From Chitinophagales bacterium (GTDB taxonomy: Bacteria > Bacteroidota > Bacteroidia > Chitinophagales > JADJOU01): a stretch of DNA of 64,000 nucleotides. The notes under the pieces were generated by a model. The model saw only the letters and a list, made by a program, of their open reading frames with translations, ran no database searches and was not told the origin of the DNA. Positions within the stretch are counted from its first letter, which is position 1. Each line of letters opens with the position of its first letter. Below, in pieces: positions 2,312 to 20,195 of this stretch. The stretch covers positions 19,441 through 83,440 of the forward strand of contig JAEUUY010000023.1 of the NCBI GenBank assembly GCA_016787225.1, in the 5' to 3' direction. A program made the position numbers and the translations under genes.

Positions 2312-2653
2312 TCAATCTTCTACATTCAGGATATGCAGCAGCCTGTGAATAAGAGGTGCGAAGAAGACTGCTGTTATACTAAGAAATGCAACACCACTGT
2401 AAAGTGCATAAAATGATGAAAACAATTTAGCATTATATGATTTCATTTCAACTACTGGCCCCATACCCGTCAATATCATACACGCCATATGAAAACTATC
2501 TAACCAAGATATGTTTGCAAAATAATGATATCCTAAGGTGCCAATCCATACAGAAATAAAAACCAATGCAAAGGCGAATAAGGCATAGCGTACGACTCGG
2601 ACTAAAAACAATGACCAAGGAGCAATTTTCTCGCGATTATGTTCTAATTTCAT
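2312..2653 (-). CDS. Small 2-TM pore-loop ion-channel-like membrane protein (non-canonical filter)
   Basis: 113 aa. Layout is TM1 (ALFAFALVFISVWIGTLGYHYF), then a pore-helix-like SWLDSFHMACMILTGMGPV, then TM2 (LFSSFYALYSGVAFLSITAVFFAPLI). It aligns by eye to the K-channel segment SW..S.Y...VT..TVGYGD, but the filter is degenerate (TGMGP). It starts 12 nt after the dabB stop. Confidence 0.5.
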   Translation of the reverse strand: MKLEHNREKIAPWSLFLVRVVRYALFAFALVFISVWIGTLGYHYFANISWLDSFHMACMILTGMGPVVEMKSYNAKLFSSFYALYSGVAFLSITAVFFAPLIHRLLHILNVED

Positions 2654-2665
2654 ATTATAATTTTA

Positions 2666-4540
2666 TTATGAATTTCGATAAGCAATTTCATGATAAGTCT
2701 TACTATGAGGACCAAGAAATAACATAGAATACATTCGAATTACGGCTAATCCATCTATCACAAAAGAACTTGCAACCAATACGGCTAAAATTATTTGATT
2801 TTCATGAATATGAGAAAACATCAAATCTTCTCCTAAAAAAGTTGGAGATATCGGGAATCCGGTCAGACCAAGACAAGCCAGCAAAAAAACAATTGAAAGT
2901 ATAGCGTGTTCGTAGGCATGACCATGAAATCGATCTAAGGTAATGTTCTCTCCTTTTTTTGATAAGAACATGAGGCAAAGTCCACCCACGGTAGAGGCAG
3001 CAATAACTCCGCTGATATAAATAATGATTTCATTCCATTCTAAATGCTCGTTAAAAAAAACAGCTAATGCTATCAAAATATGATTGGAGAATATTAGTAA
3101 TAACGTATTAAAGGCAGTTTTCTTTTCTGAAAATGCTTTGAATGAAAATAATAAAGCTATCAATCCAAACAATTCTGGTGTGAAATGAAAATGGTAATGC
3201 AAATCTAACCAATGAGCTATGACAATGATAATAGCTAAAAAAGGAAGAATATACTTTGAATTTTTCCATGATAAAAAACTCAATTTCTTCCCAATCCATT
3301 TAATTGGTTGCCACCAATAATGATAAAGTATAGTATCTAAATTCCATTCTTTGAGACATAGAATATACATTGCATACTGCCACTTGACTGGAAAAAAACG
3401 CTCGATAGTTTTCTGATAAGGTGTGAACGTATAAAACTGCTCTCTGATTTTATAACTAACTACAGATGGACTAATAAGTAATTGATAAGTTCGTAAAATG
3501 GCGTTGCCAAAAAAATGTATTAAAGCGAGGTTATGCCAGCCCATTGCTACTTCGATAAACATTATTCCTATATGTGCAATTGAGGTGTAAGCAACTTGTG
3601 CTTTGATTGAACTTTGTACCCTAGAAATACCCGTAGCCATATAGAAGGAAAACAATCCTATTAAAACAAGAAATACTCTGATGGAAATCTGGAATTCGAT
3701 CAATGGAAAGACTCGAAATAATAAATAGACACCCATATGTACTGAAAGTGAACCGTAAAATATAGCACTTGATGGAGTCGGACCTTCCATAGCTCTTGGC
3801 AACCAAAAAGAAAAAGGAAATTGAGCAGATTTGGCAGCCGCAGCTATAACTACCCCCAATGCTATAAATATACCTAAAATGGAATGCGAATGAATATGTT
3901 CACTTAGTATTTCTGCATTACTCATTTTTAGAAAAGTAACGTTTTCATGCCAAAAGTGATGACTAAGCCACATGGCTATTAAAAGTCCAACATCTCCCAA
4001 ACGATATATAGTAAATACTTTTACCGCATTCTTTACAGGTAAATATCTATATCGATAAAAGGCAATTAATAAAAAAGACGATATGCCCAATACTTCCCAA
4101 CCAATGAAAAGAGTTTCGAAATTACCCGCAAGAATGGTAAGATTGAATCCAAAGAAAAAAAGCAAAATGGTAAGAAAAAAACGCTTATAGCCTTCTTCCC
4201 TATGCATGTAATATTGACTAAAAATAGTTACCATCAAAGCTACAAAACTTCCAGCCATTAAAAACAAAATGGAAAATTTATCTATTAATAAATCGATGAA
4301 AAAATGATAGCTAGGGTTTTTGTAAATTGTAAGTTCCGATAAGTTTATTGTTTGGAAGTCTTGATATATCCACAGAACTAGCAGCCAAGCGGATAAGCCA
4401 AACTGCAATATAACTATTGATTTAGAAAGCAAGGCAATTCCTTTTTCACTACTTTTTGATAAGTAAATTCCAGCTAAATAACCTATTAACGGCAACAATA
4501 TTATTGAAAGAACTAAGTTATGCAGCATAGTTGATATCAT
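2666..4540 (-). CDS. dabB: DabB: proton-conducting NuoL/MnhA-like membrane subunit of the DAB inorganic-carbon pump
   Basis: 624 aa polytopic protein with complex-I subunit-L/Mrp antiporter-like motifs (WEVLGISSFLLI, PTPSSAIFYGSLSVHMGVYL). It overlaps the DUF2309 gene by 23 nt. Confidence 0.8.
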   Translation of the reverse strand: MISTMLHNLVLSIILLPLIGYLAGIYLSKSSEKGIALLSKSIVILQFGLSAWLLVLWIYQDFQTINLSELTIYKNPSYHFFIDLLIDKFSILFLMAGSFVALMVTIFSQYYMHREEGYKRFFLTILLFFFGFNLTILAGNFETLFIGWEVLGISSFLLIAFYRYRYLPVKNAVKVFTIYRLGDVGLLIAMWLSHHFWHENVTFLKMSNAEILSEHIHSHSILGIFIALGVVIAAAAKSAQFPFSFWLPRAMEGPTPSSAIFYGSLSVHMGVYLLFRVFPLIEFQISIRVFLVLIGLFSFYMATGISRVQSSIKAQVAYTSIAHIGIMFIEVAMGWHNLALIHFFGNAILRTYQLLISPSVVSYKIREQFYTFTPYQKTIERFFPVKWQYAMYILCLKEWNLDTILYHYWWQPIKWIGKKLSFLSWKNSKYILPFLAIIIVIAHWLDLHYHFHFTPELFGLIALLFSFKAFSEKKTAFNTLLLIFSNHILIALAVFFNEHLEWNEIIIYISGVIAASTVGGLCLMFLSKKGENITLDRFHGHAYEHAILSIVFLLACLGLTGFPISPTFLGEDLMFSHIHENQIILAVLVASSFVIDGLAVIRMYSMLFLGPHSKTYHEIAYRNS

Positions 4541-7109
4541 TTATAATTTTGACTGGAATGTTTTCATTATTAGTTTCAAATATTCTTATTAAGTCTTGAC
4601 TAGAAATGCTAGGAGTTGTCATTAATTCTAAATCTAAAATAGTGAATTCCCCTTTCTGAAATCGCAGCATTTTTTTATGAGTAGGATGAAAGCAAATGAG
4701 ATGGATCCATTCATTAGCAAACCACTCGTAGGTCGCTGGATTAGCTTGAATAGCGTTTAATATAATCTCAGGAAATTGTTCTACGATTATCATAAGACGT
4801 ATTGGGTCATGAATTTCAATCATCTGTGCGGGCAATCCTGGTCTCAGGTCACCATCTATACCGTTGGCTACTCCGAATAGACCTATGATATTATGCGGTA
4901 GTTTACTACCTGCTCCTAATTTTTGATTGTCTGTTCTGGAAAAATAGTATTCTAAATTAATCCCTCCACAAACGGGTGCAGCAGCATTTAAAATTCCTTG
5001 AAGATAACTACCATCGCTATCTTTTCGATAATCATAGCTATTGAGAAATGCACGTCGATCCAAGAATAAACCTCTAGTCATATCCCTTCTACCCACTATA
5101 CATAGAGCATTAGTAGCGTGATTATACTCTGGTCTCGGCTCAAAAAACGATACAGATCTGCGTTTAATTTTATTGTGTATTTTATCTATACTTTCAATTG
5201 TCGCTATATTTTCAAATCTACGTGAACGCTCCTTAGCATTAAGTTTCAATGCTTCTCGCATATCTTTTTTATTTGCATTATGAGAACTTCTATATGTAAA
5301 GGATAGAGAAATATCTTTATCGAAAAATTGAACTACATCTTGTGTCGTATCATGTAGTCCTCCCAAAAAAATAGTTCCCAGAGGTATATCAATACCCTTT
5401 TCCCTTAATAACTCTCTTACTTTAGGGTCATTGACCATCATCGAGAATACTCGAGCATTTACTGAGCCAGCTCTGCCACTGCAAGCTCCACATTCATAAC
5501 CGGCATAGTAAGGATTATTAGTACTAGAAGAACCATGACCAATGACATAGACAATAGGTGCAAAATTCTCAGTAAGACCAATACTTTTGAGCATATTGTA
5601 TACCCGAGTTGCCATTTCCTCCTTCGTAAAGCCAATATTTAATCCATTTTCTTGACTATGGTCATGGTTCTCAATAGCCAAAGGAAAATTTTTCTCCATG
5701 TGCATAAATGGATTGGAAGTAGCTGCGCTTCGCTTAGGAAATAAAACGGCAGAAACTAATTTTAATGCTGAAAAAAAGCCGATAAACTGAGATACAAACC
5801 AGCCTAAAAGGCTGTTGTGGCTATGCTCTGAAAAATGTATATCAGGTTCATGATGATGTATCGATGATTGATTTAACTTTTCAGTGACTTTTTTCTTCAG
5901 TTGACTAAGTTTTTGGTCCTTTGCTACTTCTTTAACCAAGTATTTGGGAGTCATAGGGGCTGGACATATCTTGGTATAAAATTTCCCACCTTCAGGCTGA
6001 AAAAACATATCCAAACCAAAAAAACCTGGCGTTCCATAAGTTTCACAGTCTGGTACAATGTATTCTATATGCCTTCTCCATGAACATATTCTGTCATCTA
6101 TACACATGATGGTTTGAAATCGCAGATTCTTTTCATAGTGAGTCTGAGGCTTATCAATTATTCCATTTAAAACAGAGTTATAATATGTCCATTCAAAGGC
6201 TTCCTGCCATAGCCTACCAATCGTAAATACATGCGTTTGTTTTACTGATTCAAAAATCATTTTAGGAGTATAATCGATATAACCTTCCAATGGGTACCAA
6301 TTTCCTTCACCAAATTTATAATCCAACGCATCAATTTCCAATAAACATTCCAAATAAATTAACTCTTTAGTGCTAATCTTTCTCTGATCAAAAAGCATGG
6401 CTGGCATTTTTTCTACTTCGGACACAAAACCGCTCCATCCCTGATGTTCAAACTGCTGATCAAAGAGATAGTTTTCATAGAAATTATAATTTTTACCAAC
6501 AAGAATTTCAAGCAAATCATGAATACTAAGACTTCGACTTTTAAAAATTTCACGTGCTCTTTTTCGTCTAAAAATACTGACAAGACCATTATTTTCTATC
6601 ACTGATAGAGCCTCAAGAAAAGTTTTATCTTTTATGGGGAATTTCCAGATGGCAATACCTTGATCTAAATAATTGCTCAATAATCTGAATAAGGTGGGAT
6701 AAACCATAGCATCCATATCTACTCCAAGTTTAGTTCTCCAATTTTCTCTCAAATTCCCTATTCTGGAGTCAAAGTCATGTACCAGGTTAATCTCCATCAT
6801 ATCTTCAAATAGTGCTTTTCGTTGATTTTCGTCACTGGTAAATTCCTTTAAAACCTTATGAACAGCGTTTTCAGAAATTTCTCCATTTCTATATTTTTTT
6901 TGATATTCATCAATAGTTAAGGTAATTTTATAGCCAAAGATTTCATATGCTTGATTCAATCCCTCAAAAAATGGTAAATGCTGAAAAGCATGTAAAGAAT
7001 TATGATGAATAAAATCTTTTAATGCCCACTGCGAAGGCAGATAATGCTTGATATGTTTAATGACTCTTTCTAAGTCAAAATTATTATTAACTAATATCTC
7101 TGTGTTCAT
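4518..7109 (-). CDS. dabA: DabA: DUF2309 family inorganic-carbon pump subunit (beta-CA-like)
   Basis: 863 aa. DUF2309 N-terminal motif (LPSQWALKDFIHHNSLHAF). Beta-CA-like CxDxR at aa 336-340 (MCIDDR; Cys codon at nt 6102-6104). Later HGSSSTNNPYYAGYECGACSG supplies His/Cys ligand candidates. Confidence 0.85.
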   Translation of the reverse strand: MNTEILVNNNFDLERVIKHIKHYLPSQWALKDFIHHNSLHAFQHLPFFEGLNQAYEIFGYKITLTIDEYQKKYRNGEISENAVHKVLKEFTSDENQRKALFEDMMEINLVHDFDSRIGNLRENWRTKLGVDMDAMVYPTLFRLLSNYLDQGIAIWKFPIKDKTFLEALSVIENNGLVSIFRRKRAREIFKSRSLSIHDLLEILVGKNYNFYENYLFDQQFEHQGWSGFVSEVEKMPAMLFDQRKISTKELIYLECLLEIDALDYKFGEGNWYPLEGYIDYTPKMIFESVKQTHVFTIGRLWQEAFEWTYYNSVLNGIIDKPQTHYEKNLRFQTIMCIDDRICSWRRHIEYIVPDCETYGTPGFFGLDMFFQPEGGKFYTKICPAPMTPKYLVKEVAKDQKLSQLKKKVTEKLNQSSIHHHEPDIHFSEHSHNSLLGWFVSQFIGFFSALKLVSAVLFPKRSAATSNPFMHMEKNFPLAIENHDHSQENGLNIGFTKEEMATRVYNMLKSIGLTENFAPIVYVIGHGSSSTNNPYYAGYECGACSGRAGSVNARVFSMMVNDPKVRELLREKGIDIPLGTIFLGGLHDTTQDVVQFFDKDISLSFTYRSSHNANKKDMREALKLNAKERSRRFENIATIESIDKIHNKIKRRSVSFFEPRPEYNHATNALCIVGRRDMTRGLFLDRRAFLNSYDYRKDSDGSYLQGILNAAAPVCGGINLEYYFSRTDNQKLGAGSKLPHNIIGLFGVANGIDGDLRPGLPAQMIEIHDPIRLMIIVEQFPEIILNAIQANPATYEWFANEWIHLICFHPTHKKMLRFQKGEFTILDLELMTTPSISSQDLIRIFETNNENIPVKIINDINYAA

Positions 7110-7114
7110 TACTT

Positions 7115-7864
7115 TTATTTCTTATATTTAATTAAATCTAGTGTAGAATTTAGGCCAACTTGAAAGGTGTGATTGTATTCTACCTGTAAACCATTTGGAC
7201 GAAACATAATCTGATTCATATACCCCATTTCTAATCTACCTATTTTTGGAATTTTGTATCCCAGTGCTAAATATGCTCTATTCTGGTCAAAAAGATTCAT
7301 ACCGACATGTTCACCAAAGCTAATCATAATTTCATCATAGGCTGAAACATAGAAGGATTTGTCCTCTATTTTTTTTCCATTTAAAGGGATAGAAAATCGA
7401 TTGAGTAGCCTGAAACGATTGGTAAACATGGCGTCTCCGGGCTCAAAAATTACTCCAGTATTGACGGGCAATTGAGAGAAACGCTGTTCTAATCGAAAGC
7501 GACTAATCCATTCAAAAGAAGATAATTGTGTTTTAATTTGGATCTGTTCCCACAGTCTATGCTCAGGGAAAGTAGATTTTACAGCAAATTCTCCATAAGG
7601 ATAGGTTTCTACAAAACAATACCCAACTGTAGCGAATACATTTGAATTTAAATGATAATTTAAACCCGTTCTTAAAAGTAATTGCTGACCTTTGGTGATG
7701 ACTTCATTTCGTCTAAACTGAGCTTCGATATGTACGCCCCATTTCTCTGCAAATTTATGATCTCCAAAATACATAAACCACCCATTAAAGTTGTCGGTGG
7801 ATTGACGTTGTGAGTAGGAGTATATAGAAACTAGGCCTGTTACTAATAAAATAATATACCTCAT
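7115..7864 (-). CDS. DUF2490-type outer-membrane protein (paralog 1)
   Basis: The ORF runs to 7897, but the ATG at 7864 gives a clean signal peptide (MRYIILLVTGLVSIYSYSQ). Alternating beta-strand pattern. Clear paralog of 16685..17509 (shared WxxH.E.QFRR..VIT..QQ.LLR.G.NYHLNS...GY...ETYPYGE). Confidence 0.65.
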   Translation of the reverse strand: MRYIILLVTGLVSIYSYSQRQSTDNFNGWFMYFGDHKFAEKWGVHIEAQFRRNEVITKGQQLLLRTGLNYHLNSNVFATVGYCFVETYPYGEFAVKSTFPEHRLWEQIQIKTQLSSFEWISRFRLEQRFSQLPVNTGVIFEPGDAMFTNRFRLLNRFSIPLNGKKIEDKSFYVSAYDEIMISFGEHVGMNLFDQNRAYLALGYKIPKIGRLEMGYMNQIMFRPNGLQVEYNHTFQVGLNSTLDLIKYKK

Positions 7865-7868
7865 AATT

Positions 7869-8591
7869 TTAAGTTTTTGGTAAATAAGTGAATTCAAAAA
7901 CTAAGCCATAACTATTTTTTTGTGTATTATTGGGTATTTGGATACCAAGAGATAAAGGTATTTGAGGATGCACAAAGTATTGTCCACCTAGAACACCTAA
8001 TCCTATATAATTATTCCCTGAAATCCAATCTCCTACTAGGTGAATTTTATTTGATAGCTTAAAATCACAACCTGTCATCACACCGAGTCCATTATCAGCC
8101 CCTTGATAGGCTTTGTTTGCATAATATATTCCAGCTATCAAATGCAACCTTTCATTTAAAAATGAATTATTTGAATTGAAATAGATGAAATTAGTAAAAA
8201 ACATATTTTTACTGTGCCTAACGAAAAAATTGCTGCCTATTTCAGCTCCAATGCCCAAATGAGTGTTTTTTGAAACTTTAAACAATTTTTGAATTGTAAA
8301 CATAGAACTTGGAGAGATAGGCCCTTCGCCTAGTGTTTCATTGGTTAAAATCGACTGGTAGTTATATACAAGTCCTATAAGATTAACACCAATTTCAAAT
8401 TCATGCTCAAGTCCATAACATATATTGGTGTTTGACTGCAATACGTTTCCTACATTAAATTGTTGCTGAAAAAAAAACTTATTTTTTAAGGTAATCTCAC
8501 TCGAAGGCACATTAAATAAATTCTGTTGAGAAAAGCTATGCAACGAAGTCAAGCAAAAAACAGCAAATAGGCTGCTTAGTTTTAATTTCAT
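7869..8591 (-). CDS. Putative outer-membrane beta-barrel protein (unassigned family)
   Basis: 240 aa. Signal peptide (MKLKLSSLFAVFCLTSLHSFSQQ), Gly/aromatic-rich alternating pattern, C-terminal GLVFEFTY. Its start overlaps the sulP stop as ATGA (8588-8591). Confidence 0.45.
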   Translation of the reverse strand: MKLKLSSLFAVFCLTSLHSFSQQNLFNVPSSEITLKNKFFFQQQFNVGNVLQSNTNICYGLEHEFEIGVNLIGLVYNYQSILTNETLGEGPISPSSMFTIQKLFKVSKNTHLGIGAEIGSNFFVRHSKNMFFTNFIYFNSNNSFLNERLHLIAGIYYANKAYQGADNGLGVMTGCDFKLSNKIHLVGDWISGNNYIGLGVLGGQYFVHPQIPLSLGIQIPNNTQKNSYGLVFEFTYLPKT

Positions 8592-10177
8592 TTGTTAATT
8601 TTCTTGATAGTTGAAAGCTCATGATTAGAAAGTTGTTTCAAATTATCTAGGCCTACAATTTCAAATTGACCGCCATTTTCCTTGTACTTTTTCTCAAAAA
8701 TTTTAATATTAGATAAAGCACTATGATCAATCATTTGCACCGAAGAAACGTCCAAAGTAATTTTATTCGCTGGAGGTATAGCATCCAATTTATCCTTTAA
8801 TCTTATGAAATTGGTAAACACTGCGGCTCCCTCTAATTTCAAGATATAATGTCCATCATGGAAGGATACAGATACAGGAGTAGAAAAGAAATGTTTAAAT
8901 GCTACACCATGTGCGAGATGCAAAGTCATTTCTAGTGCCATTCCAGCTAAAATACCAACCAATAAATCTTCATACAAGGTAAAGAAAATAGTTGTTAAAA
9001 ATATAGCTAATTGTTCCTTACCTATTTCAAGCATATGAGCAAATTCTTTAGGGTGAGCTAATTTAATACCCACAGAGATGAGCATAGCAGCCAAAGCACA
9101 ATTTGGTATTAATTCTAAAAACTGAGATGCAAAAAGCACAAAAAGTAAAATGCAAAGTCCATGGAAAATATTTGCCCATCGCGTTCGCGCGCCAGCATTA
9201 ACATTGGCAGTGCTTCGAGCTACTTCGGATATCATAGGAAGGCCACCTAGAAGTCCAGCAAATGTATTCCCTACACCAATAGCTACAAGTTCTTTATTGG
9301 TGTCCGATTTACGTTGATATGGATCCATCATATCTATCGCTTTAACAGTAAGAAGTGCTTCTAACGAACCTACTAATGCAAACATAATTACGTATCTGAT
9401 AAAAGTTCCTGATTGCTGTAATCCAGAAAAATCTGCATTATACTTTATTGAATTGAGAAAATTACCAATGTGTAGCAAAGTAAATTCAGGTTCAGTATGA
9501 CTAAAATCCATGATAAGCTCAGCAGGAATGGCAAAAATTAATACTATAAGCGGCGCAGGCAATTTGGATACAAAAGGTATATTAAAGGTATTCCAAAAAA
9601 GCATTATGATAAGACTAATAACACCTATGATAGTGGCTCGTAAATCAAATCCAGATAGAAACTGGGGAATATGGGCTATGAGATCAAAAGGTGTCATCCC
9701 CTTCATGACTTGAGGATTCTCACCTAATAATATTGGAACTTGTTTTAATATAATAATAATTCCAATAGCCGCTAACATACCATGCACTGCTGACAGAGGA
9801 AAAATTTCTGTATATTTACCTAATTTGAAAACCCCAAATAAAATTTGAATGAGACTGGCTACAACAATTGCGCCACAAGCCATGTGCCAACCAGTCTGTC
9901 CTCCCCCGAAATCTGTAACAGCACCAACCAATATGACAATGAGACCCGCTGCTGGTCCTTTTATAGTAAGATAACTGCCGCCTAATAAGCCACCAATAAT
10001 GCCGCCTATAATTGCAGTTGTTAAGCCCATAATTGCTGGAAACTCTGAAGCCTTGGCTATACCTAAACTGAGAGGTAGGGCTAATAAGAATACGCTAAAT
10101 CCAGCATTGAAATCTTGAAAAAAATTTTGTTTTAAACCTTGTATTCCATCGAATGGAACTGAGACATTTTTGTTCAT
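8588..10177 (-). CDS. SulP family inorganic anion (bicarbonate/sulfate-type) transporter with C-terminal STAS domain
   Basis: 529 aa. SulP motifs (GPAAGLIVILVGAV, ARSTANVNAGARTRW) and a STAS-like tail (LDVSSVQMIDHSAL). Confidence 0.9.
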   Translation of the reverse strand: MNKNVSVPFDGIQGLKQNFFQDFNAGFSVFLLALPLSLGIAKASEFPAIMGLTTAIIGGIIGGLLGGSYLTIKGPAAGLIVILVGAVTDFGGGQTGWHMACGAIVVASLIQILFGVFKLGKYTEIFPLSAVHGMLAAIGIIIILKQVPILLGENPQVMKGMTPFDLIAHIPQFLSGFDLRATIIGVISLIIMLFWNTFNIPFVSKLPAPLIVLIFAIPAELIMDFSHTEPEFTLLHIGNFLNSIKYNADFSGLQQSGTFIRYVIMFALVGSLEALLTVKAIDMMDPYQRKSDTNKELVAIGVGNTFAGLLGGLPMISEVARSTANVNAGARTRWANIFHGLCILLFVLFASQFLELIPNCALAAMLISVGIKLAHPKEFAHMLEIGKEQLAIFLTTIFFTLYEDLLVGILAGMALEMTLHLAHGVAFKHFFSTPVSVSFHDGHYILKLEGAAVFTNFIRLKDKLDAIPPANKITLDVSSVQMIDHSALSNIKIFEKKYKENGGQFEIVGLDNLKQLSNHELSTIKKINK

Positions 10178-13278: not shown

Positions 13279-13280
13279 TA

Positions 13281-14135
13281 ATGATAGGACCCAACACTTT
13301 CTTCGTCAATAGAACTGTTGTAATAGCCACGATGCATGGCAAAGAGACTGTTATAGCTCCCCTCCTAGAAAAAAGGTTGGGCGTAAAACTACGTCTGGTT
13401 GACAATATGGATACGGATATATTAGGCACATTTACAGGCGAAGTCGAGCGAAAAGATAGCCCAATAGATACCTTACGAAAAAAATGTCAAATGGCTCTAG
13501 AAATTACAGGTCTTGATTTAGCAGTTGCTAGTGAAGGTTCTTTCGGGGCTCATCCTAGTGCTTTCTTTGCTCATGCCAATGATGAACTAGTCATGCTACT
13601 CGATACAAAAAATAATCTTGAAATAGTAGCTAGAGAATTAACTACAGACACCAATTTTAATGGGGCTATAATAGAAAGTGAAAATCAATTGGTAGATTTT
13701 GCAACTAAGGCGCTTTTCCCAAGTCATAAGTTGATACTCAGAAATGGTGAAAATAAAAAAGATAAAATCATAAAGGGAATCGGTGACTGGGAAGAGTTAA
13801 AGGCTCAATATCATAAACTTCTAGAAGAATATGATAAGGTATATGCTGAGACCGATATGCGAGCTATGCATAATCCCACGCGTATGCGAGTGATAGCCAA
13901 GGCTACTAGTAACTTAATTGATAAACTTAATTCTCTGTGTCCGCAATGCCAAACACCAGGATATACCGTGACTAAAGTAATACAAGGTTTGCCCTGCGGG
14001 CTTTGTGAGCAACCCACGGCATCTACCTTGTCGCACATTCTATCATGTAGTCTTTGTAGACATAATGAAACGATTCTATATCCTAATAATAAAAAAACTG
14101 AAGATCCCATGTATTGTGACTTCTGCAATCCTTAA
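13281..14135 (+). CDS. Conserved hypothetical protein with C-terminal 4xCxxC (two zinc-ribbon-like knuckle pairs); possibly DUF6671-type
   Basis: 284 aa. The C-terminus has CPQC..CGLC and CSLC..CDFC. The family assignment is from memory only. Confidence 0.5.
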   Translation: MIGPNTFFVNRTVVIATMHGKETVIAPLLEKRLGVKLRLVDNMDTDILGTFTGEVERKDSPIDTLRKKCQMALEITGLDLAVASEGSFGAHPSAFFAHANDELVMLLDTKNNLEIVARELTTDTNFNGAIIESENQLVDFATKALFPSHKLILRNGENKKDKIIKGIGDWEELKAQYHKLLEEYDKVYAETDMRAMHNPTRMRVIAKATSNLIDKLNSLCPQCQTPGYTVTKVIQGLPCGLCEQPTASTLSHILSCSLCRHNETILYPNNKKTEDPMYCDFCNP

Positions 14136-14150: not shown

Positions 14151-15128
14151 ATGAACTTAGATTTTCAAGTACTTCATAGCAATCTTACCAATCCTACATT
14201 TCTTTTTTTCCTTTTAGGTGTAGTTGCGGTGCGCATCAAGAGTGACCTAGAAATACCAGCACAGAGCATAAAATTTATTTCTCTTTACTTACTTTTTGCT
14301 ATTGGATTCAAAGGGGGGCAAGAATTGTCGCATAGCACAATAAATGCTGAGGTTATATACTCGGCTCTATTTGGTGTATTCATAGCTTTGATGATACCTC
14401 TCTATACTTTTTTTATATTGAAGAAAAAACTAAGTGTAAGTGATGCAGCTGCTATTGCAGCTTCCTATGGTTCCGTGAGTGCGGTCACTTTTGTGGCAGC
14501 CGTGTCATTTCTAGAAATGCAAAAAATAACTTTCGGCGGACATATGGTAGCTATCATGGCTTTGATGGAATCGCCAGCTATTATTATTGCAGTGATACTG
14601 TTGATGAAATATGATCGTTCTAGCTCTAGAGAAGATATAAGTCTCCGAAAGCTTCTTCATCATTCTTTGACCAATGGTAGTGTTTTGTTGATATTAGGTA
14701 GTTTAGTGATAGGCACGATTGCTGATACTAAACAGGCAGAAGGTATTAAACCATTCACCACCGATATATTCAAGGGATTTTTAGTAATTTTCTTGTTAGA
14801 AATGGGGATGGTAACAGCCAAACGCTTTGGTTCATTTATGAAATATGGTTGGTTTGTAACCTTCTTCGCCATTATTATTCCAGCCTTAAATGGTTGTGCA
14901 GTGGCATGGCTGAGTCAGTATATATCGCATGATATTGGGAATCGTTTCATTTTTGCCATTCTAGCTGCCAGTGCTTCCTATATCGCTGTACCTGCTGCTA
15001 TGCGACTGGCAGCGCCGAAATCTGACCCTGGTCTTTATATTCCTATGGCATTAGGACTTACCTTTCCCTTTAATATTACGATAGGTATTCCTCTCTATTA
15101 TTTGATTATTTCTAACACTAATTTTTAA
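14151..15128 (+). CDS. SbtA-family (Sbt_1/DUF897) sodium-dependent bicarbonate transport family permease
   Basis: 325 aa, ~10 TM. The N-terminus (FLFFLLGVVAVRIKSDLEIPAQSIKFISLYLLFAIGFKGG) matches the family signature as I remember it. Confidence 0.8.
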   Translation: MNLDFQVLHSNLTNPTFLFFLLGVVAVRIKSDLEIPAQSIKFISLYLLFAIGFKGGQELSHSTINAEVIYSALFGVFIALMIPLYTFFILKKKLSVSDAAAIAASYGSVSAVTFVAAVSFLEMQKITFGGHMVAIMALMESPAIIIAVILLMKYDRSSSREDISLRKLLHHSLTNGSVLLILGSLVIGTIADTKQAEGIKPFTTDIFKGFLVIFLLEMGMVTAKRFGSFMKYGWFVTFFAIIIPALNGCAVAWLSQYISHDIGNRFIFAILAASASYIAVPAAMRLAAPKSDPGLYIPMALGLTFPFNITIGIPLYYLIISNTNF

Positions 15129-15194
15129 CTAATTAACGAACACGGAATAGCCGAACACCGTTTTACAAAGTAGGCAAAATTAAACTTTTAAACA

Positions 15195-15854
15195 ATGAAA
15201 AAGAACATCATTACAACAACATGCATGCTTTTCGGACTACTGTCTTGTGACCAAGTAAACAATGCAGCAAAAGAAGAAGTGAAATCTACCATTCAACAAA
15301 CTAGTCAGGAAGTACAAAAAGTTATAGACGAACTTGGGCTAGTTTATGTAGAGGAAGGAGCGCAAGATATTATAACCTATGATGAGGTAAATGCAGCACA
15401 GCAAGCATGGTGTGATGCATTAGTCAAAATTGGTCAGATCAAAGAAGAAGGTGGAGATTATAAAGCCTTCGCTGAGCAAGTCCTTTCGGAGGCATACAAT
15501 TATGATTATGGAAAAGTATTTTTCAAACCTACATTAGCTTATGGCGACCAGACCTTCAGAAATGATAAGAAAGGTGCTTTGGCCTATTTTATTGGAGGTG
15601 ATCCAGCCTATCCTAATGATAAAGGTTTTGCATTAACTCCATGGGTAAAAGCCCGCTATGATAACGCTGGAGAAAAAAACGAAGGTATTCAAATCTATGG
15701 TTCCGTAGCTATTACAATGGGTAATGTATGGGTTACAGGTAAAGATGGTAAGGAGGTCATGGTGGACAAAACCTGGGTCTTCAAAAAAGGAAAAGATGGA
15801 AAACTCAGAATTATAGTTCATAAATCAGCTTTACCATTCTCGCCTTCTAAATAA
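15195..15854 (+). CDS. NTF2/SnoaL-like (CaMKII-AD/COG4337-like) lipoprotein; candidate iota-class carbonic anhydrase
   Basis: 219 aa. Lipoprotein signal (MKKNIITTTCMLFGLLSC). Core AWCDALVKIG...AYNYDYGKVFFKPTLA...ALAYFIGG...VDKTWVFKKGKDGKLRIIVHKSALP resembles COG4337 proteins, which end in the HHSS-type signature. Confidence 0.45.
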   Translation: MKKNIITTTCMLFGLLSCDQVNNAAKEEVKSTIQQTSQEVQKVIDELGLVYVEEGAQDIITYDEVNAAQQAWCDALVKIGQIKEEGGDYKAFAEQVLSEAYNYDYGKVFFKPTLAYGDQTFRNDKKGALAYFIGGDPAYPNDKGFALTPWVKARYDNAGEKNEGIQIYGSVAITMGNVWVTGKDGKEVMVDKTWVFKKGKDGKLRIIVHKSALPFSPSK

Positions 15855-16020
15855 CTCTGACTATATTGATATAAAAGGCTATATTTTCATTTGCCACAAA
15901 CAAATTAGTTTAAATAGTTATTAAAAGAATTATAATTAACTAAATTTCTTTGTGGCTTTCAATGAGATTTCTATTTTTTCTATAAGATTTCATCAATTAA
16001 TTCTAAACCAAAATTTTACT

Positions 16021-16683
16021 ATGAGCTTTCCATTTTTTTTCAATTGTCGATTTCTTTTAATAGTATTCTTAGGTATTCAATCTATGTATTTATTGTCGCA
16101 GAAAACTGATTCATCAAATTTACAAAAGGAATATAATAATTTAGAAGAAGCATTAAAAAATCCTGCAAGAGTAATTAGGCTCAACCTAAGCAATCAAAAA
16201 ATAAAATTTATAGCCGACAGCACATGGGCAAAATTTAGCAATCTAGAGTATTTAAGCCTGAAAAATGATCATTTAAAGGAAGTCCCTAGTGGAATTGGAA
16301 ATCTGAAAAAGCTGAAAATATTGGATTTGGGTGGTAATGATTTTAAATTTCTTCCTCCATCGTTCTCAAATCTCAAAAATCTCAACGAGATCTATCTCGA
16401 CAACGATAAAAATTTAGATTTTAATCAAAGTTTTTCGATTCTCAAAGACCTACCTCAATTGAAAATTCTGCATTTAGAAAACCATAGACTTAATCGGCTT
16501 CCTCAATGTATATTATTTATGAACAATATTGAATACCTTTACCTCAATAAAAATGAGTTCAAAGAATTCCCTTCAGAATTAAAACAATTGAAGAATTTAA
16601 AACATCTAGATTTACATGATAACAAATTTCGTATCAGGCATCCAGACAATCCACAAACGGAAAGTTTTAAAATTGTTTTTTAA
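16021..16683 (+). CDS. Leucine-rich repeat protein (N-terminal signal/anchor)
   Basis: The ORF opens at a GTG at 15952. The ATG at 16021 gives MSFPFFFNCRFLLIVFLGIQSMYLLSQ. There are about seven LxxLxxLxLxxNxLxxLP repeats (e.g. LEYLSLKNDHLKEVPSGIGNLKKLKILDLGGNDFKFLP). Confidence 0.8.
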   Translation: MSFPFFFNCRFLLIVFLGIQSMYLLSQKTDSSNLQKEYNNLEEALKNPARVIRLNLSNQKIKFIADSTWAKFSNLEYLSLKNDHLKEVPSGIGNLKKLKILDLGGNDFKFLPPSFSNLKNLNEIYLDNDKNLDFNQSFSILKDLPQLKILHLENHRLNRLPQCILFMNNIEYLYLNKNEFKEFPSELKQLKNLKHLDLHDNKFRIRHPDNPQTESFKIVF

Positions 16684-16684
16684 A

Positions 16685-17509
16685 TTGAAAGTTTTACTAC
16701 AGTTCTATTTTCAAAAAAAATATTCTTTTCTTAGTAAAAGAATTACTACAACTGTGGCTTACTTTTTTATATTCAGCAATCTTTTCAGCCAAAGTAATAG
16801 GCTGAATACTTCAGGCGAAATAGGATGGTATAATTTGTTTTCTACATTTAAGATTCATAATAAATGGAGTATTCATAGTGAGTACCAGTTTCGAAGGGAT
16901 CATGTTATCACCGATTGGCAGCAAAGTTTATTGCGTATGGGTATCAATTATCATTTGAATTCAAGAGTACTTTTCAGGCTTGGTTATGCATGGATAGAAA
17001 CATTTCCTTACGGAGAGATTCCTATAAATGGCATGGGTAGAGATTTTACTGAGCATCGACTTTTTCAAATGATGCAATTGACCAACAAAGAGGGACCATT
17101 TCAATTATCTCATCGATTCATGCTCGAACAAAGATGGGTAGGACGATATAGCAGCTTAGGTTTTGAACACGAAGATGAGTTTCCCTTAATGCATCGCATG
17201 CGATATATGTTCAGAGCCCAGCTTCCTCTGAAAGGCAAAGAGATGAAAAACAATACACCATATCTCGCAATGTATGATGAGATATTTATTGGATTTGGAG
17301 AAAATGTTAATGCCAATGTTTTCGATCAAAACAGACTGGGTATTTTAGCAGGCTATCAATGGAATGATAAACTGAGATTAGAAGCAGGCTACCTCAATCA
17401 AATTATTCAATTTGGTCGGCAAATCAATAACCAGTCTGTATATCAATACAATCATGGACTGATCGTAAATTTAAACCTTAATTTAGATTTAACTAACGCG
17501 TTTAAATGA
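16685..17509 (+). CDS. DUF2490-type outer-membrane protein (paralog 2)
   Basis: The ORF track starts at an ATG at 16616, inside the LRR gene. A TTG at 16685, just after the LRR stop, is more plausible, but the start is uncertain. Strong similarity to 7115..7864 across the length. Confidence 0.65.
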   Translation: MKVLLQFYFQKKYSFLSKRITTTVAYFFIFSNLFSQSNRLNTSGEIGWYNLFSTFKIHNKWSIHSEYQFRRDHVITDWQQSLLRMGINYHLNSRVLFRLGYAWIETFPYGEIPINGMGRDFTEHRLFQMMQLTNKEGPFQLSHRFMLEQRWVGRYSSLGFEHEDEFPLMHRMRYMFRAQLPLKGKEMKNNTPYLAMYDEIFIGFGENVNANVFDQNRLGILAGYQWNDKLRLEAGYLNQIIQFGRQINNQSVYQYNHGLIVNLNLNLDLTNAFK

Positions 17510-17520
17510 AAAAAAAATTC

Positions 17521-18159
17521 TTACAAATCATCAAACTCATACAATGGATCTAAATGATCCTTGTAGGTCATCGTGCAGATAGGTTTGATTAGCCCATCTT
17601 CAAGGCTATATACCCAGCCATGAATATCTGGGGCTTTTCTTCCCTTCCAAGCCTTTTGAACTATACTTGTCTTGGCTAGATTCATCACTTGCTCTTCGAC
17701 ATTAAGTTCAATTAGCTTATCGAGTCTCTGCTCAGGTTTTGTTTGATAATCGATAGCTTCTCTATGCATTCGATAGACATCTTTTATATTTCGAATCCAC
17801 TTATTAATAAGGTCAAAATTGTGTCTAGACATAGCTGCCTTGACCCCGCCACAGCCATAATGTCCGCATACGATGATGTGCTTTACTTGGAGATGATCTA
17901 CCGCATATTCTAGAACAGATAGCAAATTGAGGTCGGTATGAATAACCATATTGGCTATATTTCTGTGTACAAAGATTTCTCCTGGTTGAGTTCCAGTGAT
18001 TCTATCGGCTGGTACACGACTGTCGCTACAGCCTATCCAAAGAAATTCAGGCTTTTGTACATTTGATAATCTGGAAAAAAACTCTGGGTCTTCCTTGACT
18101 ACAGAGCTAGCCCAGTTGGCATTGTTATCTAAGAGTTTTGAGATGCTATTCTTCTTCAT
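17521..18159 (-). CDS. can: Beta-class carbonic anhydrase (E. coli Can-like)
   Basis: 212 aa, near-collinear with E. coli Can as I recall it: FLWIGCSDSRVPADRITG, FVHRNIANMV, IIVCGHYGCGGV. Confidence 0.95.
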   Translation of the reverse strand: MKKNSISKLLDNNANWASSVVKEDPEFFSRLSNVQKPEFLWIGCSDSRVPADRITGTQPGEIFVHRNIANMVIHTDLNLLSVLEYAVDHLQVKHIIVCGHYGCGGVKAAMSRHNFDLINKWIRNIKDVYRMHREAIDYQTKPEQRLDKLIELNVEEQVMNLAKTSIVQKAWKGRKAPDIHGWVYSLEDGLIKPICTMTYKDHLDPLYEFDDL

Positions 18160-18189
18160 TGTTTATATGGGTTTACTTTTAAATTGATA

Positions 18190-19767
18190 TTATGAAACAT
18201 GATGACTATCTTCCATGTTATAGTCCTCTCTGAAATTAAGTAATTCTACTTGAATGTTTTTGTCTTTAGAACCTATTTTGACGAAATCTTTAATAAGTTC
18301 TATAACATCAAAATCGACATAGACAGTTTCTTTAGCATCGATGGTAACTTTACTATTGATAGGTAAATGAGCGAGGGTTTGTTTAATTGCTGCCTTATTC
18401 AGAAAAGAAACCTCCTGAGCTAGATCGATTCGGATAGTTTCCCCTTCTTTATGCTTTTCACTATTGAAAAAATAGGCTAGTCTCATATTTCCTCTGAGAA
18501 TAAAAAGAATACTGATAGCTAATCCTATTCCTACGCCTTTTAATAAATCTATACCTACTACTCCGATTACGGTTACTATAAATGGTATAAACTGAGACCA
18601 ACCTGCCTGCCACATATGTTTGAATACCTTCGGGCTAGCCAATTTCAATCCTATCATAATCAAAATAGCTGCCAAGCACGCCATTGGGATTTTATTCAAT
18701 AATGAAGGAATTAATAGTGCAGCTATAAGCAAAAATAAACCGTGAATAATAGCCGAAAGTTTGGTTCGAGCTCCGGCATTGATATTGGCGGTTGTGCGCA
18801 CGATAACAGAAGTCATAGGTAAACCACCAAGCAGTCCCGATAAAATATTCCCCATTCCTTGTGCTTTCAATTCTGTATTGGCATTGGAGTAGCGCTTTAG
18901 TGGATCCATTTTATCACCAGCTTCTAGGCATAATAGTGTCTCTATACTCGCCACGGCTGCTATAGTGGCTGCCGTTACCCATACCGCTGGCTGAACAATG
19001 CTAGCAAAATTAGGCAAATGAAATTGAGACATAAACTCTGTCAAAGATGAGGAAATAGGAAGATTGACGAGATGATTTCCATCAAACAAATATGACGATC
19101 CTTGAAGTCTGAAAATTTCATTAATTACAATGCCTACAATAACAACGACCAACGCTCCAGGAATGGCCTTTATTTTTTTGAGCACAGCTATATTTTGAAA
19201 TGCAACTAATATGGCAATAGAAATGACGGTGATAAGAATAATACCTGTATGAGCCATATTAAAGGAGTGAATCAACTCTCCCCAAAAACCTTGATCTGCT
19301 TTGTCCATAATATGATAGGAGAAGAAATCCCCTTCGTGCTCCGTATCATATCCTATAGCATGAGGAAGTTCTTTTTTAATAATGATAATACCGATACCCG
19401 TCAGCATGCCTTCTATGACTCCAGAAGGTATATAATTGGAGAGCATACCCGCCTTGGCATAGCCTAGAATCAACTGAAAACAGCCGGCTAGAATAATGGA
19501 CAAAAGGAAGGCTTCATACCCTAGATTATTTATTGCAGCTAAGACAATGGCTATTAATCCCGCCGCAGGTCCTGAGACACTTACATTCGAATTGCTCAGA
19601 AAACCTACGACGACACCACCAATGACGCCAGTAATAATTCCTGCAAAAGGTGGTGCTCCTGATGCTACGGCTATACCTAAGCAAAGTGGCAATGCTACTA
19701 GGAATACGACTAATCCCGAGAGCGCATCAGTCTTAACTGTTGACTTAAATGATTGAATAGAGTTCAT
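18190..19767 (-). CDS. SulP family inorganic anion transporter with STAS domain (paralog 2)
   Basis: 525 aa. GPAAGLIAIVLAAI, VRTTANINAGARTKLS, and a STAS-like tail. It lies 30 nt upstream of can on the same strand. Confidence 0.9.
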   Translation of the reverse strand: MNSIQSFKSTVKTDALSGLVVFLVALPLCLGIAVASGAPPFAGIITGVIGGVVVGFLSNSNVSVSGPAAGLIAIVLAAINNLGYEAFLLSIILAGCFQLILGYAKAGMLSNYIPSGVIEGMLTGIGIIIIKKELPHAIGYDTEHEGDFFSYHIMDKADQGFWGELIHSFNMAHTGIILITVISIAILVAFQNIAVLKKIKAIPGALVVVIVGIVINEIFRLQGSSYLFDGNHLVNLPISSSLTEFMSQFHLPNFASIVQPAVWVTAATIAAVASIETLLCLEAGDKMDPLKRYSNANTELKAQGMGNILSGLLGGLPMTSVIVRTTANINAGARTKLSAIIHGLFLLIAALLIPSLLNKIPMACLAAILIMIGLKLASPKVFKHMWQAGWSQFIPFIVTVIGVVGIDLLKGVGIGLAISILFILRGNMRLAYFFNSEKHKEGETIRIDLAQEVSFLNKAAIKQTLAHLPINSKVTIDAKETVYVDFDVIELIKDFVKIGSKDKNIQVELLNFREDYNMEDSHHVS

Positions 19768-19880
19768 TGAAATTTTTGAATCTTAATTTTTAAAGTGACT
19801 AACTACAGTAAAGCGAAGTTGATTTATCAATCACTTGTTTCCGCTAGAAAAGATGTTTTAAGTAACATCAAACCTTCAAT

Positions 19881-20195
19881 CTAAGATTCTGGTGGTGGAC
19901 TGAATGCAAGTAAATACGGGGGTGGAAATAATCTAGTGTCGCATCGGAGTATATCATTTCGATAAATACGAGATAGAGTAATATGCGAATAATTTATTAC
20001 CCGAGAAATTTTATATTCATTTTCTTCTGAAAGTTCCTTCGTTTTTTCAGATTCTTCTGCATCCGTTTCTTCAGCTATATCTATACAATACCCTGACTTA
20101 GTCTCATCCACAAATACATTTAAATTCATATTGACCATATAAAAAGCCAAATAAACCAAAATGATTCGAGTATAAAACAAGTTTATGTTTAACAT
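19881..20195 (-). CDS. Small hydrophobic-N-terminus acidic protein (paralog of 10247..10570)
   Basis: 104 aa. It shares the acidic KTK block and the position upstream of sulP with the other copy. Confidence 0.4.
   Translation of the reverse strand: MLNINLFYTRIILVYLAFYMVNMNLNVFVDETKSGYCIDIAEETDAEESEKTKELSEENEYKISRVINYSHITLSRIYRNDILRCDTRLFPPPYLLAFSPPPES

Follow-up and report, generated by a model that had tools for sequence, protein, structure and literature searches.

What a bacterium that is most likely a heterotroph would do with some 18 kb of genes for the uptake and interconversion of inorganic carbon (Ci) is the question raised by positions 2312-20195 of a 64,000-nucleotide stretch of DNA from a Chitinophagales bacterium (contig JAEUUY010000023.1 of assembly GCA_016787225.1), here called the window. 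The original prediction, made from the letters of this DNA, described a Ci acquisition super-island with three transporter families, up to three modules of carbonic anhydrase (CA) type and dedicated outer-membrane proteins, laid out in modules. An open reading frame (ORF) listing, together with Pfam and NCBIfam profile searches of the window, located every gene that had been named (DabA, DabB, two SulP permeases, an Sbt_1 permease, a Can-type beta-CA, a LysR regulator and icd) at its predicted place, and added a DUF6671 protein and a leucine-rich repeat (LRR) protein to the list. With comparison to other Bacteroidota, these findings led to an interpretation held with reasonable confidence, namely that this is a variable Ci supply locus of four separately mobile modules, set between conserved housekeeping flanks in a most likely heterotrophic host, with two of the modules (A and B) led by small ORFs that would encode pausing peptides. 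Judged from its genes and their context, the locus likely serves a heterotroph in acquiring Ci.

Module A, read from 10570 to 2666 on the minus strand, runs leader ORF-SulP1-barrel-DUF2490-DabA-DabB. DabA (4518-7109, minus strand), a beta-CA-like vectorial CO2 hydratase subunit, covers PF10070 in full (profile positions 1-747 of 747, E 3.4e-216), and DabB (2666-4540, minus strand; PF00361 and PF00662), a NuoL/NdhF-like proton-conducting membrane subunit, matches NuoL/NdhF and DabB2 (9rd0_B) in the PDB; the two ORFs overlap by 23 nt. The expectation that this DUF2309/NuoL-like pair would be recognized by profile models was thus confirmed. Residues C336, D338, R340, H525 and C540 of the window DabA align to C351, D353, R355, H524 and C539 of H. 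neapolitanus DabA2 (9rd0_A), and mutation of the DabA2 zinc ligands and Asp-Arg dyad abolishes function; the proposal that the DabA motif residues are zinc ligands is borne out by this alignment. By sequence, then, the pair has the marks of a DAB complex (PF10070, zinc site with dyad, and an adjacent PF00361 partner). It shares with DAB2 and with S. aureus MpsAB the adjacent PF10070 and NuoL-like genes, the Cys2His zinc site and the Asp-Arg dyad, and is of the two-gene type lacking DabC, the small third membrane protein that DAB1 systems require (10.64898/2026.05.01.722082). It differs from DAB2 in that DabA scores just 212 bits to DabA2, mainly over its C-terminal half, and DabB (624 aa) scores higher against NuoL/NdhF than against DabB2. 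It also differs in sitting in an operon with a SulP gene, two outer-membrane barrels and a leader ORF, and in co-occurring with beta- and iota-CAs rather than standing as a pump or CA alone. The closest DabA among 185,579 species genomes is only 54% identical.

The first long gene of module A is SulP1 (8588-10177, minus strand), an anion permease with a STAS domain (PF00916 and PF01740). Two outer-membrane genes follow it. The first (7869-8591, minus strand) encodes a 240-aa protein with a signal peptide, modelled by AlphaFold2 (AF2; pLDDT 89.8) as a 12-stranded barrel of the KdgM/NanC/FapF kind, with Foldseek matches to FapF, KdgM, NanC and OmpG; it has no Pfam or NCBIfam family match. The second, DUF2490a (7115-7897, minus strand; PF10677, E 2e-51), belongs to an outer-membrane beta-barrel family without assigned function (PMC4827864; 10.64898/2026.07.29.741452), which is listed as a putative porin family, TC 1.B.81 (PMC4827864). 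The 240-aa barrel was considered as a DUF2490 paralog and rejected for want of any similarity. Its family is rare, with 50 matches, and was likewise rejected as a Ci-specific family since distant members lie in unrelated contexts. In one comparison locus (L077) the barrel stands alone between dabB and SulP. The barrel-DUF2490 pair recurs twice, with Dab and SulP in L171 and without them in L170; in the latter (L170:8001-9492) the barrel homologue and DUF2490 form a stand-alone pair with no Dab or SulP gene within 8 kb, and the two outer-membrane proteins may therefore cooperate independently of the pumps.

Module B (20195 to 17521, minus strand) consists of a leader ORF, SulP2 (18190-19767, minus strand; PF00916) and, in operon with it, a cytosolic Can-type beta-CA (17521-18159, minus strand; PF00484) that has the CSDSR and HYGCGG motifs and exceeds the Can-type equivalog cut-off (NF007756, 268.8 bits against 251). 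The two SulP proteins are 33% identical. They had been called SulP/STAS paralogs, which stands for SulP1 with its STAS domain; SulP2 has no Pfam STAS match, though its C-terminus aligns to the STAS region of SulP1.

Module C comprises a LysR regulator (10636-11562, minus strand; PF00126 and PF03466) divergent from icd, DUF6671 and Sbt_1. The regulator is of a CbbR-like subtype: its best NCBIfam model is CbbR, at 184 bits, below the cut-off of 450. The NADP-isocitrate dehydrogenase gene icd (11625-13088, plus strand; NF006673, 770 bits against a cut-off of 509) is a housekeeping gene tied to the island by lineage-level synteny only. The DUF6671 protein (13281-14135, plus strand; PF20376, E 1e-93) has four CxxC motifs, all within its C-terminal 70 residues. 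The Sbt_1-family permease that follows (14151-15128, plus strand; 325 aa; PF05982, E 1e-116) had been named an SbtA-family permease. The family assignment stands; identity with SbtA proper does not, as the alignment to Synechocystis SbtA (PDB 7cye, 90 bits) is split into two blocks with SbtA residues ~165-210 left unmatched, and the protein so lacks the long cytoplasmic SbtB-binding loop region of the cyanobacterial protein. No SbtB or PII-like gene was found in the window or in the examined Sbt_1 loci. In comparison with the SbtA/SbtB systems and their CbbR-family regulators CmpR and CcmR, a permease of the same fold is here accompanied by a divergent CbbR-like LysR gene, and its partners are DUF6671, purK/purE and beta-CA.

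Module D joins an iota-CA, an LRR protein and a second DUF2490 barrel. The first of these, a 219-aa lipoprotein (15195-15854, plus strand), had been described as NTF2-like; the gene is indeed present, and its identity is corrected here to an iota, or metal-independent, CA. It matches PF27546 and NF047901 (E 8e-54; at 182 against 350 it is below the equivalog cut-off) and PDB 7c5v (E 1e-43; 7c5x was also aligned). In addition, Thr106, Tyr124, His197 and Ser199 (all2909 numbering), shown by mutagenesis to be important (PMC8132391), are conserved as fkpTla, galaYf and vHkS. With the Anabaena all2909 iota-CA (7c5v; PMC8132391) it shares the single COG4337-type domain, the four residues and an N-terminal export signal; it differs in being a lipoprotein, in its sub-cut-off score and in its linkage to an LRR gene and a DUF2490 barrel. 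Because of its lipobox (LLSC) it is probably periplasmic, as are by prediction most bacterial COG4337 proteins (PMC8132391). The claim of up to three CA-type components thus held, in the form of DabA, the beta-CA and the iota-CA. The secreted LRR protein (15952-16683, plus strand; LRR Pfam families) is followed by DUF2490b (16616-17509, plus strand; PF10677, E 4e-46), 42% identical to DUF2490a. The start codon of DUF2490b is uncertain: its longest ORF overlaps the LRR gene by 68 nt (16616-16683), a Logan gene call is shorter (251 aa), and the true start probably lies further downstream.

Whether these genes belong together was evaluated by gene-neighbourhood comparison, the check that the original prediction had proposed for dabA. 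Eighty Bacteroidota loci anchored on DabA (48-54% identity) were assembled by tblastn and all-against-all clustering; many of the contigs are short, and the neighbour counts are lower bounds. Culturable carriers of such an architecture include Arcicella aurantiaca DSM 22214, Aquirufa spp., Flavobacterium succinicans, F. tiangeerense and Rhodonellum psychrophilum. In these, dabB adjoins dabA in 79-80 of 80, SulP lies within 10 kb of dabAB in 59-61, and DUF2490 is present in 22-24, nearly always beside SulP or dabB. The SulP2-betaCA pair was found in six of the 80 and the 240-aa barrel in one, and none contained a small channel-like gene found next to dabB in the window (p113, described below), Sbt_1, iotaCA, DUF6671, LysR or icd. 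Gene order varies, being dabA-dabB-SulP-DUF2490, SulP-dabA-dabB-DUF2490, or SulP divergent from dabAB, and such shuffling is expected of functional linkage rather than of synteny by descent. Loci with a SulP2-betaCA pair include L015, L017, L031, L033, L048, L069, L088 and L171. Modules A and B, which lie side by side in L171, are thus found in other Bacteroidota, as the modular layout first proposed would have it, and SulP, DUF2490 and the leader ORF do co-occur with dabA; the channel-like gene does not. A 450-aa protein without a Pfam match was also noticed within 6 kb of dabA in 18 of the 80 loci (e.g., L071:3501-4853).

A second set of 80 metagenomic loci, anchored on Sbt_1 at 70-86% identity, revealed a different neighbourhood. 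LysR occurs in 15, DUF6671 in 12-15, beta-CA in 12 and iotaCA in 4 of these, with DUF2490 adjacent to iotaCA in three (L091, L092 and L099). The DUF2490b orthologues that adjoin iotaCA there are 61-62% identical, and in L091 and L092 an LRR gene lies between the two. The DUF2490 paralog that had been listed with module B, as convergent on it, hence belongs with iotaCA-LRR, in module D. The order LysR-icd-DUF6671-Sbt_1 was found in L088, L090, L110 and L121, and L153 has LysR-icd-Sbt_1 without DUF6671, the gene that most often directly precedes Sbt_1 in this clade (8 of 48 loci). In one case (L125) Sbt_1 adjoins SulP-DUF2490-dabB-dabA. More telling is purK, present in 19 of the 80 loci and directly downstream of Sbt_1 on the same strand in 10 of 46, with purE in 11 of 80; L114 has the order LysR-betaCA-purK-purE-Sbt_1. 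PurK uses HCO3-, and purK mutants require high CO2 (PMC10880623). Since PurK consumes bicarbonate in purine synthesis, this linkage is the strongest contextual evidence that the Sbt_1 clade supplies bicarbonate to biosynthesis. Apparent purK/purE operons with an Sbt_1 70-77% identical to that of the window were seen at L134:8001-10157 and L150:8001-10623, and in L162, L158 and L114.

How the modules came to lie in one place is indicated by four genomes (the window, L171, L088 and L087) that share flanks at 63-94% identity and differ in cargo. In the window the order is bshB1, p113, module A, LysR-icd-DUF6671-Sbt_1, iotaCA-LRR-DUF2490b, module B, eno. L171 has bshB1, module A, module B and eno and nothing else, p113 included. 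L088, without module A, has bshB1, then, at 1943-4090, a 2-oxoglutarate (2OG)-Fe(II) oxygenase, another DUF2490 and an MscS-like fragment, followed by LysR-icd-DUF6671-Sbt_1, a 108-aa ORF, module B and eno. L087 has bshB1, a 109-aa ORF, a p113 homologue, dabB, a 5'-shortened dabA and a transposase. Because the flanks are the same and the cargo differs, the 18 kb are best understood as an accretion of four modules and not as a conserved super-operon, and the notion of the island as one unit gives way, relatives carrying subsets (A and B in L171, C and B in L088, part of A in L087). In L087, the nearest relative with dabAB-p118 (L087:19-3991), a DDE transposase abuts a dabA of 775-808 aa, against 863 in the window, and SulP-barrel-DUF2490 is missing; this arrangement suggests a recent rearrangement of the hotspot.

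The gene p113 (2312-2653, minus strand), which encodes a 113-aa protein and had been counted as a mini-channel of module A, starts 12 nt past the dabB stop and, because of that spacing, is probably co-transcribed with dabB here. It has no Pfam or NCBIfam match. By predicted fold (AF2 pLDDT 79; top Foldseek matches to the NaK channel at TM-scores of 0.52-0.65) it would be a NaK-like protein with two transmembrane (TM) segments, arranged as TM1, pore helix, TGMGPV loop and TM2. The filter position carries an invariant TGMGP in place of the TVGYG-type sequence of a K+-selective filter on this TM-P-TM fold. The family is large (more than 3,119 clusters at 68-79% identity across Bacteroidota orders, without a Pfam model), and homologues in Pontibacter and in a Chitinophagaceae metagenome-assembled genome have unrelated gene contexts. 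Its usual neighbours are unrelated to Ci genes, and it is not a conserved part of Dab modules. As the sole small membrane gene near dabAB, p113 was considered as a DabC or other Dab accessory and rejected on its NaK-like fold, its absence from the 80 other dabA loci and its absence from L171; the DAB1 subtype therefore finds no match here.

Modules A and B are each headed by what is the most novel part of the locus. The small acidic gene that had been pointed out in both modules proved to represent a conserved class of leader ORFs. Clustering revealed unannotated same-strand ORFs of 100-140 aa directly upstream of dabA or SulP in many loci, none of them with a Pfam match. Under a strict definition (an ATG-initiated ORF of 80 aa or more, N-terminal hydropathy no lower than 1.8, and six or more Asp/Glu within a 15-residue window) such ORFs precede 49 of 92 Ci operon heads and 4 of 261 other heads (Fisher p = 1.6e-29, a value made optimistic, like the other p-values for the leader loci, by their phylogenetic non-independence). 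With any start codon allowed, they precede 46 of 56 dabA, 14 of 22 SulP1-type and 7 of 7 SulP2-type heads; none was found before Sbt_1 (0 of 60), nor before purK, LysR, beta-CA or DUF6671. Where SulP and dabAB are divergent (L005, L017, L035, L046 and L071), each carries its own leader ORF. Among the positives at other heads, one precedes a transposase insertion (L007) and two head efflux operons of the RND (resistance-nodulation-division) and OEP (outer-membrane efflux protein) type beside dabAB (L023 and L001). Both of these are of class 1 (defined below): the leader at L023:14532-14885, with the tail PLFRLHCVFLI, lies before membrane fusion protein (MFP)-RND-OEP genes at 15024-20803, and that of L001, with the tail IHVLNCTFLI, lies just upstream of position 18080.

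The layout of the leaders is uniform: basic residues, an N-terminal hydrophobic segment, a variable stretch, an acidic run, a second variable stretch and a conserved tail that ends at the stop codon. The length after the hydrophobic segment is conserved at about 95 residues, and the ORF is always 5' of the operon, separated by a non-coding gap with a median of roughly 85 nt. Class-1 tails, of dabA and SulP1-type operons, read P-L-[FYW]-[LI]-[LV]-x-[RC]-x-[FIL]-[LR]-[IL]-stop (e.g., PLFIQFRNIRL and PLFRLHCVFLI); class-2 tails, of SulP2-betaCA operons, read (E)I[VI]PPPP[QK][VA]-stop or [ST]PPP[ER]x-stop. The window has one of each. The class-1 leader ORF (10247-10570, minus strand; 107 aa, TTG start) has the acidic run EEWEEEED and the tail SLIIWIQNFRI-stop, and its orthologues (L171, P0172 and P0173) end in IIW[IVY]QNFRI. 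The class-2 leader ORF (19881-20195, minus strand; 104 aa) has the run EETDAEESE and the tail SPPPES-stop, with an 84% identical orthologue in L088 (dN/dS 0.33) and the tail ISPPPEV in L171. Between the two proteins there is weak similarity (38% over 60 aa), and likewise between the DNA upstream of SulP1 and that upstream of SulP2. In a word-indexed homologue search the 107-aa ORF matched itself only, and an exhaustive phmmer search of 1.84 billion representatives returned two relatives at 35% identity, with IIW[VY]QNFRI tails.

Substitution patterns indicate that the leader ORFs are translated and under purifying selection, with dN/dS of 0.08-0.37 (median 0.19) over 24 orthologue pairs. Conservation is uneven, identity being 0.77 at the N-terminus, 0.59 in the first spacer, 0.83 in the acidic run, 0.59 in the second spacer and 0.89 in the last 12 residues. 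In these last 12, dN is 0.067 (pN 0.064) and pS is 0.49; because synonymous divergence far exceeds non-synonymous, the constraint on the tail acts on the peptide, and constraint at the RNA level was rejected as its cause. The position of the acidic run is equally constrained. In 45 representatives less than 40% identical, the median distance from its centre to the C-terminus is 56 residues (interquartile range 55-59, standard deviation (SD) 7.4), against an SD of ~22 expected for uniform placement, and none of 2,000 simulations was as tight. Class 2 keeps the ~56-residue distance though its N-side spacing is ~14 residues shorter.

Transcription of leader and operon as one unit was approached through promoter motifs. 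The -7 consensus of Bacteroidota is TAnnTTTG. A search for this motif found no box directly before SulP1 or SulP2 and one upstream of each leader ORF, namely TAACTTTG (10588-10595, minus strand), 17 nt upstream of the class-1 leader start, and TAAATTTG (20200-20207, minus strand), just upstream of the class-2 leader; both are consensus matches only. Since the boxes precede the leaders and not the SulP genes, one transcript per upstream ORF (uORF) and operon would fit. A scan for sigma-70 promoters and terminators gave counts equal to shuffles and is uninformative for Bacteroidota, and an Rfam scan of the whole window at gathering thresholds returned zero RNA families, hence no known riboswitch or leader. 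The junction RNA, which takes in the final 48 nt of the uORF and extends to +30 of the gene after it, is more stable than shuffles, with a mean z of -1.48 compared with -0.49 at 70 control heads (Mann-Whitney p = 8e-7). Pairing of at least 6 nt between the downstream initiation region and the uORF 3' end was found in 48% of loci; both control sets gave 26% (p = 2e-4 and 5e-4). For Flavobacterium, there is a group in which the two final uORF codons and the stop are paired with sequence that immediately precedes the dabA AUG; in a group of Crocinitomicaceae the partner of the tail codons spans that AUG. In the window leader, QNFRI-stop is paired with SulP1 positions -25 to -5. The RNA evidence for a leader mechanism is modest.

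These features recall the arrest peptides. A published screen for such peptides selected unannotated uORFs whose N-terminus is a signal or TM segment and whose C-terminal motif is conserved, with a spacer exceeding 30 aa, and recovered Bacteroidota-specific stop-codon-dependent motifs and an LPPP motif (10.1101/2023.09.02.556018). All four sequence features are found in the leader ORFs, whose motif either terminates with the stop codon or is made of consecutive prolines (PPP). They also share with arrest peptides and monitoring substrates the absence of overall sequence similarity and a tendency towards pairing between the 3' end of the uORF and the initiation region downstream. They differ in that the downstream genes are dabA, SulP and two RND/OEP operons and not secA, secDF or yidC, in that the tails (PLF..R.hRL/I-stop and PPPPQV-stop) are new, and in the extra acidic run fixed ~56 residues from the end. 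One report has TM segments first reaching the membrane ~45 residues from the peptidyl transferase centre (10.1101/2021.12.23.474019), and, according to Ismail et al. (2015) as related in PMC6028853, the pull that the proton motive force (PMF) exerts on acidic residues during translocation can suffice to release SecM arrest.

Under the proposed mechanism a leader ORF would act in cis as a pausing peptide sensitive to secretion or membrane potential, in the manner of SecM or VemP, and would set the expression of the downstream transporter. By the time the ribosome arrives at the tail and its stop codon, the acidic run, ~56 residues behind, would have entered the SecYEG channel or just passed it, and there membrane potential or periplasmic pH could pull on it, the duration of the pause reporting PMF or external pH; a longer pause would unmask the downstream start site. 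PMF and pH may also decide whether CO2 capture by DabAB or bicarbonate import by SulP pays. That the leader ORFs are cis-regulatory pausing peptides is put forward tentatively from their sequence features. That they form a new class of force- or voltage-sensing arrest peptide, the first to control solute transporters (DabAB, SulP and RND), is a more doubtful proposal. Classical amino-acid attenuation by the Asp/Glu run was considered and appears unlikely, the run lying ~50 codons before the stop in ORFs of more than 100 codons.

The small ORFs could instead encode stable acidic accessory proteins, periplasmic or membrane-anchored, without any role as cis regulators. Such a protein might be a subunit or chaperone of DabAB or SulP, might serve as an antenna for cations or protons, or might plug or partner the outer-membrane barrels; the conserved spacing would then be that of a small folded domain, and the tail would mediate interaction or sorting. 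Purifying selection along the whole ORF, a signal-peptide-like N-terminal segment, a conserved length and the precedent of the small third protein of DAB1 (10.64898/2026.05.01.722082) would all suit this reading. Against this, the ORFs are extremely divergent, to the point that phmmer finds the two relatives mentioned above and no others, conservation is concentrated in the last 11-12 residues up to the stop, and the class of tail tracks the type of operon. The ORFs are moreover always 5' with a non-coding gap and also head RND operons. Divergence, tail, position and RND heads fit leader peptides better than subunits, and the accessory reading is regarded as rather unlikely. Several findings nonetheless weigh against pausing peptides of a Ci locus. 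Purifying selection extends along the whole ORF, and the spacers have a dN/dS of about 0.20-0.24, in keeping with a functional, folded protein. Nine aligned uORF-dabA junctions gave no consensus RNA structure, and no compensatory changes were found in the long-range uORF-dabA stems of two narrower groups. Because it also heads RND/OEP operons, the leader type is not strictly Ci-specific.

Returning to the locus as a whole, the modules can be assembled into a bicarbonate supply that spans the envelope. DabAB would carry out PMF-driven, irreversible hydration of CO2 to cytosolic bicarbonate, SulP1 would import bicarbonate or a related anion, and DUF2490a with the 12-stranded barrel would give Ci a route across the outer membrane. 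Module B would pair an anion importer with cytosolic equilibration of CO2 and HCO3- by the Can-type beta-CA. Module C would provide a regulated Na+- or H+-coupled permease of bicarbonate type under the CbbR-like LysR, and module D periplasmic interconversion of Ci by the iota-CA beside an outer-membrane channel. Together the modules would feed PurK, the biotin carboxylases, carbamoyl-phosphate synthetase and anaplerosis at low external CO2, and not a carboxysome. DAB/MpsAB systems are documented in heterotrophs, and the characterized ones rescue growth at air-level CO2 (PMC13144422; 10.64898/2026.05.01.722082); in B. subtilis, according to one report, anabolism depends largely on bicarbonate (10.64898/2026.09.08.750065).

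This assignment of roles has its own difficulties. A cytosolic beta-CA co-expressed with DabAB would short-circuit the pumped bicarbonate pool; because of this dissipation the modules are probably used under different regimes, and the goal is likely a flux of bicarbonate and not a pool far from equilibrium. The Sbt_1 protein is, by its alignments, just distantly related to SbtA and is without SbtB. Neither SulP protein reaches the NCBIfam cut-offs for BicA, DauA or sulfate permease (SulP), the two scoring 141 and 131 bits against a BicA equivalog cut-off of 880, and because that cut-off is not reached both can be assigned to the SulP superfamily (PF00916) only.

The best surviving alternative for the locus is that it serves pH or ion homeostasis, as an adaptation to alkaline or low-PMF conditions, and not carbon supply; DabB, SulP, Sbt_1, the CAs and the NaK-like channel would then buffer cytoplasm and periplasm through CO2/HCO3-. 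CAs and bicarbonate transport are classic devices of pH control (PMC8132391, on periplasmic COG4337 proteins), the channel gene is co-oriented with dabB, an MscS-like gene lies in the same hotspot of L088, and RND operons share the leader ORF type. The alternative is nonetheless improbable: Sbt_1 homologues stand in operons with purK and purE, whose products consume bicarbonate, the regulator is CbbR-like, the channel gene is unlinked to dabAB in other lineages, and the rescue of growth by DAB/MpsAB at air-level CO2, noted above, points to carbon.

The clustering could also be largely a coincidence, the SulP proteins carrying sulfate or another anion, only DabAB and the CAs being concerned with Ci, and DUF2490, the barrel, LRR, DUF6671 and icd being unrelated neighbours. 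The failure of both SulP proteins at every curated equivalog cut-off, the housekeeping nature of icd, the distant barrel homologues in unrelated contexts and the lack of conservation of the full 18-kb arrangement are all in keeping with this. It is quite improbable all the same, considering that the same associations return, with their genes rearranged, in different families and orders of Bacteroidota, that the cargo between fixed flanks is repeatedly drawn from the same gene families, and that dabA and SulP operons share a leader class.

That the island is part of an autotrophic carbon-concentrating mechanism (CCM), with RuBisCO and carboxysome genes elsewhere in the genome, is scarcely credible: a cytosolic Can-type CA is incompatible with a classical CCM, the carrier orders (Chitinophagales, Cytophagales and Flavobacteriales) are known as heterotrophs, purK/purE linkage points to biosynthetic demand, and, in agreement with the original prediction, no RuBisCO, phosphoribulokinase (PRK) or bacterial microcompartment (BMC) shell domain is found in any ORF of at least 120 aa across the 64 kb, so that the RuBisCO, shell and carboxysomal CA of a classical carboxysomal CCM have no counterpart there. 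DAB, SulP, SbtA and a CbbR-like regulator are typical CCM parts (PMC10880623), and autotrophy could, formally, still be encoded outside the window, which tells against a heterotrophic reading.

The combination had been thought not to have been described as a unit. For the gene families this does not hold, since DAC, SulP and SbtA transporters with CAs have been set out as a 'DIC toolkit' of autotrophs and heterotrophs alike (PMC10880623), with the same purpose of matching Ci supply to demand and with SulP beside beta-CA; a heterotroph with these transporter and CA families is not surprising in kind. The window differs in putting all the families, and with them nearly every known kind of CO2 and bicarbonate uptake gene, in one Bacteroidota hotspot with outer-membrane barrels, an iota-CA and leaders. 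The toolkit review does not mention Bacteroidota (0 word-start matches for 'bacteroid'; PMC10880623), and a literature search of incomplete coverage on DUF2490, on DAB with SulP in Bacteroidota and on Bacteroidota arrest peptides did not find these linkages. Within that coverage, what appears new is the concentration of all families in one variable hotspot, the recurrent linkage of DUF2490 and a rare 12-stranded barrel to Dab/SulP and iota-CA, the Sbt_1-purK-purE operons and the DUF6671-Sbt_1 pairing, and, above all, the leader-ORF class.

How heterotrophs supply themselves with bicarbonate at air-level or lower CO2, and how they sense scarcity of Ci, is poorly understood beyond a few models. 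Common freshwater and soil Bacteroidota seem to combine an energy-coupled CO2 pump, two or three anion permeases, CAs of both periplasm and cytosol and dedicated outer-membrane barrels in exchangeable modules, and testable functional leads are now at hand for DUF2490, the 240-aa barrel, DUF6671 and, through the purK/purE linkage, the non-cyanobacterial Sbt_1 proteins. The leader-ORF class is widespread and invisible to sequence comparison, and its geometry suggests a nascent-chain sensor coupled to membrane energetics. If true, this would extend arrest-peptide regulation to nutrient transport and would provide a natural expression switch responsive to voltage or pH.

The locus is flanked by ddl, a MerR-type gene and bshB1 on one side and by eno, a WYL-domain gene and valS on the other, and the remainder of the window is made up of housekeeping genes (ClpB, PriA, Der, Era and others). 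A stretch of ~500 bp (20196-20701) that separates eno from the class-2 leader ORF has no ORF assigned to it and carries a second TAnnTTTG box at 20566. The DNA of the locus is also present in two Logan assemblies.

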